A DNA stretch of 64,000 nt, from IMG/VR virus record IMGVR_UViG_650377940_000003, positions 87,323 to 151,322 of that record; one strand, given 5' to 3'. This document shows positions 5,834-52,670 of the stretch, piece by piece. A program made the translations under genes and the position numbers. The notes under the pieces were generated by a model. The model saw only the letters and a list, made by a program, of their open reading frames with translations, did no database searches and was not told the origin of the DNA. Numbering within the stretch: position 1 is the first letter of the stretch; each line of letters opens with the position of its first letter. The DNA is from a virus. Its lineage: Duplodnaviria > Heunggongvirae > Uroviricota > Caudoviricetes.

Positions 5834-5856
5834 GCTAACTATATAACACAGGATAC
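5834..5856 (+). promoter_or_regulatory. phage conserved motif copy (ACTATATAACACAGGATAC)
   Basis: One of 7 copies of core TAWWYACAGGATAC; 16 nt upstream of RBS of the Pnkp-ligase gene. Confidence 0.6.
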
Positions 5857-5877
5857 CTATTAGAAAGGGAGATGCAG

Positions 5878-8208: not shown

Positions 8209-8293
8209 GGGGATATGGTGAAATTGGCAGCCACGCTTGATTCAAACTCAAGTGTCGAAAGACGTATCGGTTCAAATCCGATTATCCCTACCA
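8209..8293 (+). tRNA. tRNA-Leu (anticodon CAA)
   Basis: Hand-folded cloverleaf: acceptor GGGGATA/TATCCCT, anticodon loop TTCAAAC, long variable arm, T-loop TTCAAAT, CCA encoded. Confidence 0.75.
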
Positions 8294-8494
8294 TGAAGAT
8301 TAGTTGTTCTAGCTCGTTCGGGGATTGGCCGTACATTGGCGACCGGAAAGACGTCACACCGGTAAAGGACGTCAAGCCAGACAAGAAGAGAAATAAGGTG
8401 TAAGCCGACTAGCTATCGGATAAATACTCTTCGGTTCGCCAGAAAACTAGAATGTAAAACGAATGGTTGGCTGTTTCTGATCTTCTTTTTATAT

Positions 8495-8577
8495 GCGCCC
8501 GTGGTGGAATCGCAGACACAGGAGACTTAAGATCTTCTGCCAGAGATGGCGTGCGGGTTCAAGTCCCGCCGGGCGCA
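8495..8577 (+). tRNA. tRNA-Leu (anticodon TAA)
   Basis: Acceptor GCGCCCG/CGGGCGC, anticodon loop CTTAAGA, long variable arm, T-loop TTCAAGT. Confidence 0.7.
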
Positions 8578-8584
8578 TTTATAT

Positions 8585-8660
8585 CTGGGCGTAGCGAAGT
8601 TGGTATCGCACCTGTTTTGGGAACAGGGGACCGCAAGTTCAAGTCTTGTCGCTCAGACCA
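8585..8660 (+). tRNA. tRNA-Pro (anticodon TGG)
   Basis: C1:G72 acceptor typical of tRNA-Pro, anticodon loop TTTGGGA, T-loop TTCAAGT, CCA encoded. Confidence 0.7.
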
Positions 8661-8748
8661 GTCCGAAAGGGCATGTAGAATTTTTCATTCACATTATTCC
8701 CAGCTCTCTGGAAACGGAGCAGTGTGACGTAGTAAGCTGGGTATATGA

Positions 8749-8819
8749 TGCGCCATCGCCAAGCGGTAAGGCAGAGGACTTTGACTCCTCCATCACAGGT
8801 TCGACCCCTGTTGGCGCAA
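8749..8819 (+). tRNA. tRNA-Gln (anticodon TTG)
   Basis: U1:A72 acceptor TGCGCCA/TGGCGCA, anticodon loop CTTTGAC, T-loop TTCGACC. Confidence 0.65.
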
Positions 8820-8824
8820 TTTAT

Positions 8825-8906
8825 GCGGATATGGTGGAATGGCAGACACGCCAGATTTAGGATCTGGTGCTTCGGCGTGTGGGTTCGATGCCCACTATCC
8901 GCACCA
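8825..8906 (+). tRNA. tRNA-Leu (anticodon TAG)
   Basis: Acceptor GCGGATA/TATCCGC, anticodon loop ATTTAGG, long variable arm, T-loop TTCGATG, CCA. Confidence 0.75.
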
Positions 8907-9007
8907 CGGTCATGAATCGTTGTTGTTCATGGTTGAACTCCTTTGACCACTATTATTCCCGGCTCGCCAGTGATGGTGCAGTAGTGCTTTGTAAGCTGGG
9001 TTCTCAT

Positions 9008-9082
9008 GCAGCGGTCGTACAACGGCTAGTATATCAGCCTTCCAAGCTGAGGATGAGGTTTCGACTACCTTTCGCTGCTCCA
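9008..9082 (+). tRNA. tRNA-Gly (anticodon TCC)
   Basis: Acceptor GCAGCGG/TCGCTGC, D-stem GTAC/GTAT, anticodon loop CTTCCAA, T-loop TTCGACT, CCA. Confidence 0.6.
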
Positions 9083-9264
9083 ATTTCGTATGGGTAGGGA
9101 TTTTAAGCGGTCAGATCCGGCTGCGCCTGTGCGAGATACCACCCCGAAAGGGGCTAACGAAATTATCCATGTACGTTATTCTCGGTTCGCTCGAAAGAGT
9201 ACAGCGTGCCTTTGCAAGCCGAGCATCCCAGCCTAGTGATGCCAGTTGCTAGGTTGGTTCTTAT

Positions 9265-9340
9265 GCGACTGTAGTTCAATTGGCAGAGCGTCAGATTTCC
9301 AATCTGAATGTTGCGGGATCATACCCCGTCAGTCGCTCCA
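9265..9340 (+). tRNA. tRNA-like, second Gly(TCC)-type with atypical T-loop (ATCATAC)
   Basis: Acceptor GCGACTG/CAGTCGC, D-arm GTTC..GAGC, anticodon loop TTTCCAA, CCA; non-canonical T-loop, so possibly a pseudo-tRNA. Confidence 0.4.
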
Positions 9341-9567
9341 CACGCAGCCCCTTACGCTGCACCGGTTACTCAGAGCCGAAAGAAACCTATATGTTACGAC
9401 ATGGTTGCCAAGAGTGATCATATTGGAACGCGACGTAGCTTGGATAGTGAGAATTAAATTCTGAGGTATACGGCTGGATAGCTTAATGGTAAAAGCGCTC
9501 GGAAACGCCGAGAGATGAGGTTCGATTCCTCCGCTGGCATCGCGCCGACGAAAGTCGGCGTTTGCAT

Positions 9568-9644
9568 GGGATAGTAGCTCAGTTGGTCAGAGCTGGCGGC
9601 TCATAACCGCTTGGTCGCGAGTTCAAATCTTGCCTGTCCCACCA
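9568..9644 (+). tRNA. tRNA-Met/Ile2/fMet type (anticodon CAT)
   Basis: Acceptor GGGATAG/CTGTCCC, D-loop TAGCTCAGTTGGTCAGAGC, anticodon loop CTCATAA, T-loop TTCAAAT, CCA. Confidence 0.75.
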
Positions 9645-9747
9645 GCCCGATAGGGCATACATAAAATCTGCTAGAACTTTTGTTTTATAAGCGAATGAAT
9701 AATATGACGTTAATACGTCTATTATTTTTCGCTTATTTTCGGAGTTT

Positions 9748-9768
9748 TAGCTATGTAACACAGGATAC
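9748..9768 (+). promoter_or_regulatory. phage conserved motif copy (TAGCTATGTAACACAGGATAC)
   Basis: Copy of TAWWYACAGGATAC 12 nt upstream of AAAGGAGG RBS of the methyltransferase gene. Confidence 0.6.
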
Positions 9769-9779
9769 TAAAAGGAGGA

Positions 9780-11256
9780 ATGAAAACTGAAGCATTACGG
9801 AGATATCACACAACTCCATGGATGGCAGATTGAACCGGTTTCCTGTATCACAGGAGGCAGTCCCTGCCAAGATCTGAGTCAAGCCGGTAAACGTGAAGGT
9901 TTGGCTGGTGAACGCTCTGGATTGTTCCTTGAAATGATTCGTGTGATTACAGAAATGAGGGAGGCCACTAATGGAGAATATCCAAAATTCGCAATCTGGG
10001 AAAATGTCAGAGGAGCTTTCAGCTCAAGCAAAGGTGAAGACTTCAGATGTGTGTTGGAAAGATTTGCACGCATTGTCGAGCCAGACGTTTCAATTCCTCG
10101 ACCTTCAGGAAAGAACGGAAAGTGGGCAAAATCTGGAGCGATTTCCGGTAATGGATGGTCTCTTGCATGGAGATTGTTCGACGCTAAATACTGGGGAGTC
10201 GCCCAGCGTCGCCAGAGAATCGCGCTTGTCATGGATTTTGGAGGACAACGTGCCTCAGAAATTCTATTTGAGCGCACGAGCATGTCAGGGGATTCTTGTG
10301 AGAGCATCCCGGCGTGGAAAACCTTTGCCCGAACTCCTGAAGCAAGCGTTGCTGGATATGATCGAATGGTGGAATCCAGGAACTCTGTCACAGGTGGTGC
10401 AGAAAGTGAAGGAACAAGAAGGTCTGGAAGAGAAGGAATTGGACGAGTATTGGAGTCAGACCATCGAGAGACTTCGACTCGATGCACAGAACCTGCAGCC
10501 TACACTCTAAAAATCCGTTCTGGATGTGAAGGTGGCGGTAAAGGCGCTCTTGTTCAAACTGAATTGAGCGCAACGATTTCTACGTTACAAGACCAGACGC
10601 TGATTTGCTTGGCAGAAAATCCCTCCTTACATAATTTAAAACAAAATATTTCGCCGGTGGTGTTTGAGAGCCACAGTCAGGACGCTCGATACACTCAGCA
10701 GAGTGATACAAGTCCGACTTGTACTGCTCAGTGGGGAACTGGTGGCAATAATATGCCACTGGTCATTGAGAAGAAAGCCTTTGCGATGCAACGCATTGGT
10801 GAATACAAGGAAAGTGAACAGGCTAGTACGATGAAATCTCGTGACTACAAGGACGCTACTGACCTGATTACAGAGAAAGAAACGAAGAATCTACGATGGA
10901 TTGTTCGCCGTTTGACTCCTTTGGAGGATGAACGGCTTCAGGGGTTCCCTGATGGATGGACAGATATCGGTGACTGGATTGATGAGAACGAAAAGAAGCA
11001 TAAAACTTCTGACGCAGTTCGTTATAAGGCACTCGGCAATTCAATCGCATTACCGCAATGGTATTGGATTTTTCAGAAGATGAAATCGTATATCGGTGAG
11101 AATCCTACTCTTGGTAGCCTCTTCGATGGGATCGGCGGCTTTCCGCTAGTATTTCAAAGCACATATGGTGAAGGTACTGCCATTTGGGGGTCAGAAATTG
11201 ATAGCTTTTGCGTTGCAGTAACTAAGAAGCATTTTCCAGAAAAGCAAAGAGGATAA
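9780..11256 (+). CDS. C5 cytosine DNA methyltransferase, circularly permuted (motif order III/IV-VI-VIII-TRD-IX-X-I-II); ATG at 9780 is 1 nt out of frame (A4 run 9783-9786)
   Basis: Frame +1 from 9784: KLKHYGDITQL...GGSPCQDLSQAG (IV), ENVRGA (VI), QRRQRIALV (VIII), RRLTPLEDERLQGFPDGW (IX), KALGNSIALP (X), then LFDGIGGF (I) and SEID (II) before stop at 11256; RBS AAAGGAGGA precedes ATG 9780; deleting one A gives M-KLKHYGDITQL. Confidence 0.6.
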
Positions 11257-13945: not shown

Positions 13946-13966
13946 TAGCTAAGTAACACAGGATAC
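13946..13966 (+). promoter_or_regulatory. phage conserved motif copy (TAGCTAAGTAACACAGGATAC)
   Basis: Copy of the motif in the intergenic region before the Sak4-like gene, followed by TATCGTA/TACGATA inverted repeat. Confidence 0.55.
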
Positions 13967-14056
13967 TTATAAAAGAAAAGTTTTATCGTATTTACGTCAA
14001 AATAAATATCGTAGGTACGATAAATAATTTTGATAAAAACGGAGGAATTTACATAT

Positions 14057-27304: not shown

Positions 27305-27329
27305 CAATTATGTGCGTATCCTGTATAAT
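27301..27329 (+). promoter_or_regulatory. consensus sigma70 promoter TTGACA-17-TATAAT overlapping an inverted motif copy
   Basis: TTGACA 27301-27306, TATAAT 27324-27329; motif GTATCCTGTATAATATAGTT at 27317-27336. Confidence 0.65.
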
Positions 27330-27341
27330 ATAGTTACAAAA

Positions 27342-27360
27342 AGTCTCCGCCCCGGAGGCT
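27342..27360 (+). terminator. short GC hairpin between inverted motif copies
   Basis: AGTCTCCGCCCCGGAGGCT stem-loop; weak T tract. Confidence 0.35.
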
Positions 27361-27375
27361 TAAAATTCTCTCTTT

Positions 27376-27464
27376 AACTATATAATACAGGATACGGGAA
27401 AGAAATGGCTTGCTCGTAACGACAAGCCTTTCTTTATTAGCTATAACTATATAACACAGGATAC
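27376..27464 (+). promoter_or_regulatory. two direct motif copies (27376-27395 and 27438-27464) flanking a tiny ORF/hairpin (GGCTTGCTCGTAACGACAAGCC) upstream of the ligase gene
   Basis: AACTATATAATACAGGATAC and TAGCTATAACTATATAACACAGGATAC; hairpin followed by TTTCTTTATT. Confidence 0.55.
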
Positions 27465-27477
27465 GCAAGGAGGCTTT

Positions 27478-51055: not shown

Positions 51056-51820
51056 TCAGAAGAAATTATTCGGTATGAAGAAGTTTCACCAACGGCCAAA
51101 CTTTGGCGTTACATGGATTTGGCTAAGTTCATTTCTTTGATTGGAAAGAAAAAGTTGTACTTTGCGTCATTGGAATCGTTTGAGGATATATTTGAAGGTG
51201 CAAAGGGAATTATAGAACGTAAGGGAATATGGAACGAATTTTACACGGAGTTTCTTGAGTGGGCTATACGAACGCCACCGGAGGGAAATACGAGAGATTT
51301 GACGGATGAATATGTGGAAAAGAACGCGGCGATGATTTTGTCAAATCTTGAAAGAGTGGGCGTAAGCGAAAGAAAAGATATCTTCGTAAGTTGTTGGCAT
51401 TGTAATCAATATGAATCAGAGGCTATGTGGAAATTATATTCTACAAACGTGGAAAATGCGATTGCAATTCAGACAACTAGCCAACAATTATATGAAGCAC
51501 TTGGAAAAGACCCATCAGTAGAAATAGGAAAAGTACGCTATATTGATTTTACAAAGCAGTTTGCACCTATAAATGGCTCGTATTGGTGTAAACGAAAATC
51601 GTTTGAGTATGAACAAGAAGTAAGGGCAGTTACACATATGAGAAAAGCTGCTTGCTGTGGTGTTGAAAAAGATGTCGATATTGAGAAATTGATTGCAGGA
51701 GTCTATATTTCGCCGTATGCACCTAAATGGTTTGAAGATGTAGTGCGTGATACTACAGAAAAGTATGGGTTGAATAAGCCAATCTTTTATTCGGAAATGA
51801 AAGCAAAACCATTTTACTGA
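51056..51820 (+). CDS. DUF2971-family protein
   Basis: KLYFASLESFEDIFEG matches DUF2971 hallmark (hydrophobic-Y-F.S...FND..E); RBS AAAGAGG. Confidence 0.55.
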   Translation, partial: SEEIIRYEEVSPTAKLWRYMDLAKFISLIGKKKLYFASLESFEDIFEGAKGIIERKGIWNEFYTEFLEWAIRTPPEGNTRDLTDEYVEKNAAMILSNLERVGVSERKDIFVSCWHCNQYESEAMWKLYSTNVENAIAIQTTSQQLYEALGKDPSVEIGKVRYIDFTKQFAPINGSYWCKRKSFEYEQEVRAVTHMRKAACCGVEKDVDIEKLIAGVYISPYAPKWFEDVVRDTTEKYGLNKPIFYSEMKAKPFY

Positions 51821-51848
51821 TATGCAATTATAAACAAACAGCCGCCCA

Positions 51849-51886
51849 GCGACCTTACGGTCAACTGCTGGGCGGCTGTTGTTGTA
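51849..51886. repeat. hairpin repeat copy 1 (CAGCCGCCCAGCGACCTTACGGTC...GCTGGGCGGCTG), bidirectional terminator
   Basis: Near-identical to copy at 52331-52376. Confidence 0.6.
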
Positions 51887-51893
51887 CTTATAC

Positions 51894-52271
51894 TTACGCC
51901 AGATGGAGTTTCTCTTTCAGCGCATCCTGAAGGACGCCGGAAAAGTTGATGTGTGCCGATTCGGCGGCATCGTTGAGCCAACCGGGAATGGAAAGGGTTT
52001 TCTTTACGGGTCTGTACCGCTTTTCGTACTCTTCCATATCGAAGGGCACCATCACCACAAAATCTTCCGGGTCAACATGGAGTGCAGAAGGGACAGAAGG
52101 CTCCGGGCAGACTTTGCAATCTTCCAGCATAAGGCCGATGGCATCCTGTGCCATGCGGACAGCTTCGTCCATGGTATCGCCTTGGGTGAAGCAGCCCTCA
52201 ATATCGGGGATCTCAACAGAGTACCCGGTTTCTTCCGGGTGAAAAATTGCAGGATAGAAAATAGCGTTCAT
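51894..52271 (-). CDS. hicB: HicB-family antitoxin (RNase H-like fold + RHH DNA-binding tail), orphan
   Basis: YPAIFHPEETGYSVEIPDIEGCFTQGDTMDEAVRMAQDAI HicB signature; C-terminal RHH-like segment; own promoter TTGACA-17-TATGAT with TACGTA repeats; no hicA ORF found. Confidence 0.6.
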   Translation of the reverse strand: MNAIFYPAIFHPEETGYSVEIPDIEGCFTQGDTMDEAVRMAQDAIGLMLEDCKVCPEPSVPSALHVDPEDFVVMVPFDMEEYEKRYRPVKKTLSIPGWLNDAAESAHINFSGVLQDALKEKLHLA

Positions 52272-52330
52272 AATGTGACCTCATTTATTGTATCATATAC
52301 GTATTTTACGTATTTGTCAAGAGGGCAAAA

Positions 52331-52376
52331 ACAGCCGCCCAGCGACCTTACGGTCTCGCTGGGCGGCTTATTTTTT
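52331..52376. repeat. hairpin repeat copy 2 followed by T tract (terminator)
   Basis: AGCCGCCCAGCGACCTTACGGTCTCGCTGGGCGGCTTATTTTTTG. Confidence 0.6.
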
Positions 52377-52670
52377 GCGTTTCCACAACAGATATTCTTC
52401 GTAGCGGTGCATCTCGTTCTGTTCTTCTTCGGTCAGGCGCTGGCGCTGTTTGCGGGCTTCGTCCGAGGGGTCGATGTCGGTCAGGCCCAGCAGGTAGTCG
52501 GCGGAGGTGCCGTAGAGCTTGCAGATGGCAAGCAACACATCGCTGGGTGGCGAATTGCGTCCCTGCTCCCAAGCGCTGACAGCCCAAACGGTAAGCCCTA
52601 GCTTATCCGCAAGGCTTTTTTGTGTGTCATGGTAGTTCTTTCGAATCTCTGCCAGTCGCTCTCCAAGCAT
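52368..52670 (-). CDS. XRE-family HTH transcriptional regulator
   Basis: MLGERLAEIRKNYHDTQKSLADKLGLTVWAVSAWEQG Cro/C1-type HTH; RBS AGGAAAGGTGG; upstream ACTAGTATA operator-like repeats (52690-52812). Confidence 0.65.
   Translation of the reverse strand: MLGERLAEIRKNYHDTQKSLADKLGLTVWAVSAWEQGRNSPPSDVLLAICKLYGTSADYLLGLTDIDPSDEARKQRQRLTEEEQNEMHRYEEYLLWKRKK

Follow-up and report, generated by a model that had tools for sequence, protein, structure and literature searches.

Can a C5-cytosine DNA methyltransferase occur in nature with its first two sequence motifs carried at the C-terminal end of the chain? This question is raised by positions 9,780 to 11,256 of a stretch of phage DNA of 64,000 nucleotides (Caudoviricetes; IMG/VR record IMGVR_UViG_650377940_000003, positions 87,323 to 151,322), and this whole stretch is called the window in the following. 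For a fixed motif order, C5-cytosine methyltransferases are the standard textbook example. An earlier note on this DNA, made from its letters alone, had read the locus as a circularly permuted member of this class. The analysis described here makes it highly probable that the gene encodes a functional DNA (cytosine-5) methyltransferase, an orphan enzyme whose circular permutation is natural, and it leans towards a second, nested gene being read from the same DNA in another frame.

The reading frame of the enzyme (frame A) is free of stop codons from 9784 up to the TAA at 11254-11256, and the motifs follow each other along it in the order III-IV-VI-VIII-TRD-IX-X-I-II, where TRD is the target recognition domain. 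Its parts are listed here, AdoMet being S-adenosylmethionine and pLDDT the predicted local distance difference test score of the fold model.

9787..11256, + strand: circularly permuted C5-cytosine DNA methyltransferase, frame A, 489 amino acids (aa), from a proposed CTG start to a TAA stop
9799-9816, + strand: motif III, GDITQL, in frame A
9853-9879, + strand: motif IV, GGSPCQDLS, residues 23-31 with the catalytic Cys27, upstream of TTG 9901
9997-10008, + strand: motif VI, WENV, residues 71-74
10204-10218, + strand: motif VIII, QRRQR, residues 140-144
10275..10905, + strand: variable region and TRD of frame A, ~210 residues (~163-373), pLDDT <35
10906-10953, + strand: motif IX, RRLTP..LQGFPD (RRLTPLEDERLQGFPD)
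11035-11055, + strand: motif X, GNSIALP
11119-11142, + strand: motif I, LFDGIGGF, residues 445-452
11191-11202, + strand: motif II, SEID, residues 469-472 (Glu470)
11119..11202, + strand: relocated AdoMet-binding segment, motif I to motif II, aligning to M.HhaI 16-59

By all the sequence and fold criteria tested, the window enzyme belongs to the C5-methyltransferase family. The Pfam profile PF00145 matches it in four stretches (E 4e-35, 122.2 bits against a cut-off of 22), and TIGR00675 matches with 116.8 bits against a cut-off of 100.65. The catalytic motifs IV (PC, with the Cys nucleophile), VI (ENV) and VIII (QxRxR) are all present, and so are the AdoMet motifs I (FxGxGG) and II (acidic residue), which lie C-terminally. 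A phmmer search against solved structures aligns the protein to M.HhaI piece by piece: residues 5-90 of the query correspond to HhaI 58-136, residues 375-392 to HhaI 272-289, and residues 445-490 to HhaI 16-59. This piecewise alignment establishes the permuted order beyond visual inspection.

The predicted structure is of the same kind. AlphaFold2 models residues 1-162 and 374-489 at pLDDT 80-97, the region 163-373 staying unmodelled, and it packs the C-terminal motif I-II segment, a strand-helix-strand unit at residues 442-469 (pLDDT 91-94), into the catalytic domain. The top Foldseek matches of the model are M.HhaI (E 4e-7), then M.MpeI, M.HaeIII and DNMT1. In the folded enzyme, motif I (FDGIGG) and motif II (Glu470) would turn back onto the body of the protein and complete the AdoMet-binding half of its Rossmann-like domain.

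The motif order is none of the natural arrangements with which it was compared. The canonical layout, with motif I N-terminal and motif X near the C-terminus, is not that of the window protein. The BssHII/Eco31I type is also absent, since IX-X come after VIII and the TRD and I-II come last, and so is the DRM type (VI-X before I-V), since motif IV precedes VI. What is found is a break between motifs II and III, corresponding to 'type B/C' of PMC5944983: the N-terminus reads (M/L)KHYGDIT, the C-terminus reads ...SEID..KKHFPEKQRG, and a linker of ~22 residues joins motif X to motif I. A survey of 2018 (PMC5944983) looked in REBASE for enzymes in which motif X precedes motif I and found 27, all of them permuted in the variable region (BssHII type). 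A 2025 classification (bioRxiv 10.1101/2023.12.13.571470) assigns 5-methylcytosine (m5C) enzymes to topology C (canonical) or topology F (Eco31I, zeta) only. The III...X-I-II layout is absent from both works, and no description of this topology, nor of a nested gene in methyltransferase genes, was found in the open-access text of the literature. Engineered forms of M.HaeIII whose N-terminus falls between motifs II and III have been reported to retain activity (Peisajovich et al. 2006, as cited in PMC5944983), and the activity of these laboratory proteins shows that the topology is compatible with catalysis.

The origin of the permutation can be read from its ends. In 22 canonical relatives the corresponding region reads ...WASEIExFPIAVTKxHFP(D/N/E)-M-KH(L/Y)GDITKINGAEIEPVD..., and the permuted proteins start exactly at the conserved internal Met of HFPD-M-KHLGDIT and end right past HFPE. 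Their linker between motifs X and I is made up of the C-terminal tail of canonical proteins and, after it, the N-terminal TLGSLFDGIGG of such proteins. Both the junction and the composition of the linker fit a tandem duplication plus truncation. A canonical relative would have undergone tandem duplication, after which initiation would have shifted to the internal Met of ...HFPD-M-KHLGDIT... and termination to a point just past HFPE in the second copy, the head of the first copy and the body of the second being lost. Much of the earlier note is borne out by these results. Its identification of the enzyme as a C5-cytosine methyltransferase that has motifs I-II C-terminally agrees with PF00145, TIGR00675 and the M.HhaI alignment, and the check that it had proposed, an alignment to the PF00145 profile or M.HhaI, has been run and upholds the motif order. 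The break that it placed between motifs II and III is shown by the termini and by the same alignment, and the difference that it saw from the M.BssHII type stands, the layout being missing from the 2018 and 2025 surveys. The canonical relatives with their HFPD-M-KHLGDIT confirm that the ends recreate the canonical junction, as it had noticed, and the origin by tandem duplication and double truncation that it suggested fits the termini and the linker.

The same junction is also what a mis-joined tandem repeat would produce, as the ends of the open reading frame (ORF) rejoin into the canonical sequence; the gene might then be a normal dcm distorted in assembly, through a collapsed tandem duplication, a chimera or the junction of a concatemer. 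The chance of this is negligible. Many independent assemblies from different studies, as well as two cultured and completely sequenced phages, show the gene with identical architecture and flanks. No second copy of any part of the gene was found in the 64-kb window. The promoter motif and the Shine-Dalgarno (SD) sequence stand directly at the 5′ end, and the next gene begins 2 nt past the methyltransferase stop. The absence of a repeat, the many matching assemblies and the two isolates rule out misassembly and collapsed duplication.

Indeed, the permuted enzyme is widespread. A search space of 5.8 billion proteins returned 8,000 matches, the best 120 of which share 87-99% identity, the same motif order and the same C-terminus ...HFPEKQRG. 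Independent assemblies that have this order at 87-99% identity number in the hundreds. One homologue sequence alone was found in 186 blocks of the assembly collection, on contigs of up to 320 kb. Among the best 150 representatives after clustering at 50%, ~120 are permuted (start M-K-H-(L/Y)-G-D-I-T, PCQ at ~25, LFDGIGG near the C-terminus) and ~25 are canonical. In IMG/VR, at least 588 stretches encode relatives, and the best 80 of these (37-99% identity) are nearly all permuted. FP_Toutatis and Lelie, both cultured Faecalibacterium phages, have a permuted gene at 52% identity. A megablast of the region against phage records returned short unannotated human-gut fragments only. The search of related phages for the same arrangement, another check that had been proposed, thus shows that the gene is not a peculiarity of one phage; it is an ordinary member of a very large family.

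Codon-position entropy was calculated over 55 non-identical loci with identity down to 37%. Over codons 1-60 and 371-489, the third position carries 1.2-1.7 bits and the first two carry 0.2-1.0, so that purifying selection acts on the N-terminal catalytic part as well as on the relocated motif I-II part. Selection on frame A is seen over codons 1-160 and 371-489. These patterns rule out a pseudogene. They also bear on the related idea that the gene is a non-functional remnant, the decaying fragment of a duplicated dcm left without a start codon. This idea draws on the facts that the first ATG, GTG or TTG of frame A (TTG 9901) lies after the PCQ motif, that gene callers place the starts of most relatives downstream of PCQ, and that some relatives are disrupted in frame. 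Against it stand the selection signature, the exclusively synonymous clade substitutions in the 5′ 38 codons, the integrity of every catalytic and cofactor motif, the confident fold prediction for both halves, and the position of CTG 9787, where relatives have a regular ATG or GTG start with an SD sequence. A remnant is therefore very improbable.

The start codon deserves separate consideration, and it involves the following two elements.

9774..9778, + strand: Shine-Dalgarno core GGAGG, 8 nt before CTG 9787 and 1 nt before ATG 9780
9780..9833, + strand: out-of-frame ATG with a 17-codon ORF (MKTEALRRYHTTPWMAD, then a stop), probably a decoy or competing start

The gene had been taken to start at ATG 9780 and to be one nucleotide out of frame only because of an A4 run. 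ATG 9780 is indeed one base off frame A, in which TGA stands at 9781-9783, and CTG 9787 is in frame A. The arrangement GGAGGAATGAAAACTG is unchanged in six further independent assemblies, and two members of the clade (L010 and L020) have GGAGGGATGAACTCTG, keeping both the out-of-frame ATG and the in-frame CTG where the A run is missing. A sequencing error in the A4 run is ruled out by this conservation and by the absence of the run from L010 and L020, and with it falls the frameshift that had been ascribed to the run. Of the proposed start, the one-nucleotide offset stands, and CTG 9787 replaces ATG 9780 as the likelier start of the gene. The position of CTG 9787 is an ATG in P0107 and most other relatives. 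In the nearest other clade it is a GTG, 7 nt past the SD sequence, and this clade shares the promoter motif and AAAAGGAGG. Four substitutions separate the window from L002-L007 in codons 1-38, and none of them changes a frame-A residue. The most likely point of initiation is the weak codon CTG 9787, 8 nt past GGAGG, ATG 9780 being at most a decoy. Since CTG would be the true start, gene callers begin most relatives at internal codons. Public entries for relatives (the 460-aa 'MSQAGKREGL...' forms) are N-terminally short, the callers having begun downstream of the catalytic Cys.

Frame A could also be reached from ATG 9780, if a programmed +1 frameshift or transcriptional slippage on A AAA A came after initiation there. 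The out-of-frame ATG is kept clade-wide, including the members that lack the A run; a +1 slip of tRNA-Lys on AAA-A would yield M-K-L-K-H-Y-G-D-I-T, and recoding seems to be needed in other members of the family, for example at a TAG(C/A) insert past the Cys codon. However, the GGAGG core lies just 1 nt from ATG 9780 and 8 nt from the CTG, L010 and L020 have AACT for AAAA, so that the slippery run is not conserved, and the sequence downstream holds no stimulatory stop or rare codon. We regard recoding at this site as improbable and retain initiation at CTG 9787.

Several relatives interrupt the frame in other ways. A poly-G tract at frame-A codon ~106 has nine G in FP_Toutatis (G9; L088, NC_047915) and fourteen in Lelie (G14; L089, PP479942). 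In both it lies at locus ~1815-1835, equivalent to window ~10100-10120, and both genes are out of frame, while metagenomic relatives with an intact frame have G7. The tract looks like a phase-variable (contingency) tract, and variation in its length gives rise to split annotations and to fusion ORFs of 201-241 aa that join frame A to frame B, the +1 frame described below. In the window no homopolymer tract was found at this position, where the sequence is TCAGGAAAGAACGGAAAG. Two clades (L012-L015, L017, L024, L036, L042; and L040, L073, L076, L086, L087), which include the closest non-CTG clade of the same phage group, have four extra bases, TAG(C/A), right past the catalytic Cys codon (..CCT TGT TAG C CAA GAT.., locus ~1575-1590). 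The insert puts the conserved upstream 27 codons off frame with the remaining gene, and it is a candidate for a programmed +1 frameshift at a stop codon or for a conserved off-switch. In P0092 and P0112 (633-636 aa), an in-frame insert of ~175 residues with an HNH_3 domain (PF13392), equivalent to window ~10950, splits motif IX between LQGFP and GWTDIG in genes that are otherwise 94-99% identical; it resembles the homing 'ShiLan' insertion that has been reported in a phage methylase (PMC11855218). The window gene itself is not split by an intron, intein or mobile insert. In P0111 (567 aa) the methyltransferase ORF runs past motif I into a dUTPase domain (PF00692), probably by a deletion or a fusion with the neighbouring gene. 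In effect, gene callers and profile-based annotation split or shorten members of the family.

Some observations weigh against a functional enzyme in the window. CTG seldom serves as an initiator, and the confidence of the TRD model is very low. In motif IX the window protein has Asp where at least 90% of relatives have Cys (LEDERLQ vs LECERLQ). Furthermore, the frame disruptions of the relatives (poly-G and the 4-nt insert) imply that some family members are not constitutively expressed.

The second question is whether the gene encodes one protein only. Homologues P0129 and P0207 carry in their main ORF, replacing motif VIII, a module that in the window belongs to the +1 frame, or frame B (phmmer E 1e-18), and the frames were analysed because of this. 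The elements concerned are these.

9960..9964, + strand: SD-like GGAGG, 6 nt ahead of the frame-B ATG 9971
9971..10510, + strand: nested +1-frame ORF B, 179 aa, ATG start, TAA at 10508-10510
C-terminal half of frame B: conserved helical module LSWILEDNVPQKFYLSARACQGILVRASRRGKPLPELLKQALL
first ~30 codons of 10275..10905, + strand: unconstrained linker of frame A overprinted by frame B, with entropy H1>H2>H3 at codons 161-190

Frame B of the window reads ...ESRLSWILEDNVPQKFYLSARACQGILVRASRRGKPLPELLKQALLDMIEWW..., and its translation includes FYLSARACQGILVR. The tests were made on 131 full-length loci, permuted and canonical, which are related by descent. The open region covers ~121 codons; it begins just before motif VI and ends 45 codons past motif VIII. 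The density of +1 stop codons per 100 codons is 0.01 inside it and 4.41 elsewhere, and that of the +2 frame inside it is 4.48; the region is open in +1 in 130 of the 131 loci and in +2 in none (0/131). The start codon of frame B is ATG in 101 loci, GTG in 29 and TTG in 1. An ATG or GTG follows the preceding +1 stop by 2-11 codons in 130/131 loci, and at least four of five bases match GGAGG upstream of the start in 108/131. The median length is 139 aa.

The synonymous sites point in the same direction. Within the overlap, the four-fold sites of conserved frame-A codons carry 1.11 bits, compared with 1.66 beyond it (Mann-Whitney p = 8e-5), and those of codons 137, 139, 148, 149, 152, 168 and 181 are nearly invariant. 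In frame-A codons 161-190, entropy falls from position 1 to position 2 to position 3, which is the signature of selection on frame B alone. Synonymous constraint is already seen at frame-A codons 75-76, that is, at frame-B residues ~14-15, and this argues that reading of frame B begins close to its own start. That frame B is a mere shadow of frame A is ruled out by the tests on stop codons, start codons and synonymous sites. Frame B is found in 65 of 70 canonical relatives and also in Streptococcus phage Javan261, a Clostridium innocuum phage and Enterobacter phage CobraSix (30% identity in the C5 domain), so that it is older than the permutation.

The best reading of frame B is that of an overprinted nested gene with its own initiation, whose helical and basic C-terminal module would overlie the unconstrained methyltransferase linker past motif VIII. 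AlphaFold2 predicts a disordered N-terminal half and a helical C-terminal half (pLDDT 73-87), on a shallow alignment. PHROGs returned only phrog_16143, 'DNA methyltransferase' (E 3e-5), which is itself probably built from such nested ORFs, NCBIfam gave no match, and a Foldseek search with the model gave nothing below E = 1.6. A profile of the module matches 2,353 proteins of 80-137 aa, and the few named by their source are hypothetical or uncharacterised proteins; two matches that were inspected sit nested in intact canonical dcm genes. There are reasons for caution about a nested gene: as the loci share descent, the 130 of 131 do not equal 130 independent trials, Pfam gave a weak Rad17 match only (E 0.035), a PDB profile search gave none at E <= 10, and no free-standing copy was seen among the two module-profile matches inspected.

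The main rival of a nested gene is a frameshift isoform of the methyltransferase that would have its C-terminal part encoded in the +1 frame; alternatively, the constraint might lie outside protein, as in RNA structure. Natural variants do join frame-A residues 1-105 to frame B (the ORFs of 201-241 aa), P0129 and P0207 run from A to B and back to A, and the N-terminal half of frame B is predicted to be disordered. However, variable poly-G tracts are where these fusions arise, and motif VIII is missing from them. Frame B is open for ~80 codons ahead of the conserved module and has an ATG or GTG start, usually with an SD-like sequence, and synonymous constraint is already visible at frame-A codons 75-76. 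RNA structure, for its part, is opposed by conservative amino-acid substitutions in the module and by a wobble that follows frame B. Both the isoform, as the foremost rival, and the two alternatives taken together appear unlikely.

The balance is slightly in favour of a dual-coding clade, canonical and permuted, that extends from phages of Bacillota to at least one Enterobacter phage, in which a methylation-linked three-helix frame-B protein of ~140-180 aa would be translated. By the same joint and narrowly preferred reading, the nested ORF lies between motifs V/VI and the TRD and carries a conserved basic three-helix module. As a matter of speculation, its product may regulate the enzyme or act against modification-dependent (type IV) restriction. 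The single-frame account given in the earlier note is incomplete, as a conserved +1 ORF lies within the gene and selection over codons ~161-190 is not on frame A.

The surroundings of the gene in the window suggest how it is expressed. They include a terminator-like hairpin and several copies of a promoter-like motif.

9706..9729, + strand: terminator-like hairpin (9706-9719) and T run (GACGTTAATACGTC TATTATTTTT), dividing the tRNA cluster from the methyltransferase unit
9748..9772, + strand: phage-specific promoter-like motif TAGCTATGTAACACAGGATAC, one of five copies of TA[AG]CTAT[AG]TAA[CT]ACAGGATAC
5836-5860, 9748-9772, 13946-13970, 27375-27399 and 27444-27468, + strand: the promoter-like motif copies

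The 21-nt motif TA[AG]CTAT[AG]TAA[CT]ACAGGATAC occurs five times on the + strand of the window, every copy being intergenic. Most copies follow a hairpin, and they stand 5-15 nt ahead of an SD sequence and start codon. The motif is kept upstream of the methyltransferase gene in relatives, and no sigma-70 consensus site was found at the copy upstream of the window gene. It is probably a phage-specific promoter, and transcription of the methyltransferase probably begins at 9748-9772; the promoter motif that had been claimed for the gene is borne out in this form, as a promoter-like element in five intergenic + strand copies. A partial inverted copy of the motif lies at ~27315-27343.

Upstream of the unit, eight tRNA genes occupy 8209-9644 (Leu-CAA, Leu-TAA, Pro-TGG, Gln-TTG, Leu-TAG, two Gly-TCC and Met-CAT). 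In relatives, a 736-aa kinase/phosphatase/T4-type RNA ligase gene precedes the tRNA cluster. The absence of an adjacent nuclease gene marks the methyltransferase as an orphan enzyme, and for this reason methylation of the phage genome is proposed as its role: the enzyme would most likely methylate the genome of the phage and so evade host restriction. Elsewhere in the window, an exact 27-nt direct repeat (AAACAGCCGCCCAGCGACCTTACGGTC) is found at 51817-52391, with copies 493 nt apart and flanking inverted arms of 36 nt.

What these results mean extends beyond one phage. The surveys of 2018 and 2025 admit one natural exception to the canonical order, the permutation in the variable region, and the window family adds a natural break between motifs II and III, a break whose viability the directed evolution of M.HaeIII had predicted. 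With its canonical parents still present, the family is a clean natural example of permutation via duplication and truncation. As most entries begin past the catalytic Cys, predictions of phage methylomes miss these enzymes. The nested ORF, if translated, would be among the most widely conserved overlapping genes in phages and a new player linked to DNA methylation. Should the dual-coding reading be true, a third natural m5C topology and an ancient overprinted gene, two unreported features, would be joined in one gene. The nested ORF also shows that the 'linker' past motif VIII is not free to vary, which matters when these enzymes are engineered.

Several known systems share part of these features. 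Second proteins encoded out of frame on the mRNA of a larger gene have precedents. In E. coli, vsr, which belongs to a known endonuclease family, overlaps the 3′ end of dcm by a few codons, and comS in srfA and rz1 in rz are nested out-of-frame genes. Unlike vsr, the ORF described here comprises ~140-180 codons wholly within the methyltransferase gene, and it has no Pfam or PDB relative.

Among permuted enzymes, plant DRM also has a rearranged C5-methyltransferase domain, and ntDRM and DRM2 structures are among the sequence and fold matches of the window protein. In DRM, motifs VI-X precede I-V, the break being between V and VI, and the protein is eukaryotic and of a separate lineage. The beta-class amino-methyltransferases (IV-VIII, TRD, X, I-III; 'topology B') also place the catalytic motif ahead of the AdoMet motif, with the TRD between them. 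They differ in their chemistry, in a DPPY/SPPF motif and in having motif III beside I-II, and they are related to the window enzyme only in fold.

The canonical M.HhaI, M.HaeIII and Dcm (PF00145, 'topology C') are alike in all ten motif regions and in predicted fold, sharing ENV, QxRxR, FxGxGG and the catalytic Cys of PCQ. The nearest relatives (45-60% identity) come from phages; they are canonical in layout, have a TRD of the same type and likewise contain the nested +1 ORF, whereas the window polypeptide starts at motif III, ends past motif II and has the X-I linker of ~22 residues. M.BssHII, M.Alw26I and M2.Eco31I (zeta, 'type H', 'topology F') represent the other natural permutation and presumably arose by the same route of duplication and truncation. 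Their N-terminus lies in the variable region (IX-X-I...VIII), in contrast to the II/III break of the window enzyme (PMC5944983; bioRxiv 10.1101/2023.12.13.571470). According to PMC5944983, laboratory permutants of M.HaeIII, M.SssI and M.MpeI ('type B/C') have the same break point as the window enzyme and keep activity. These permutants are engineered, whereas the window family is natural and abundant and its junction is precisely conserved.

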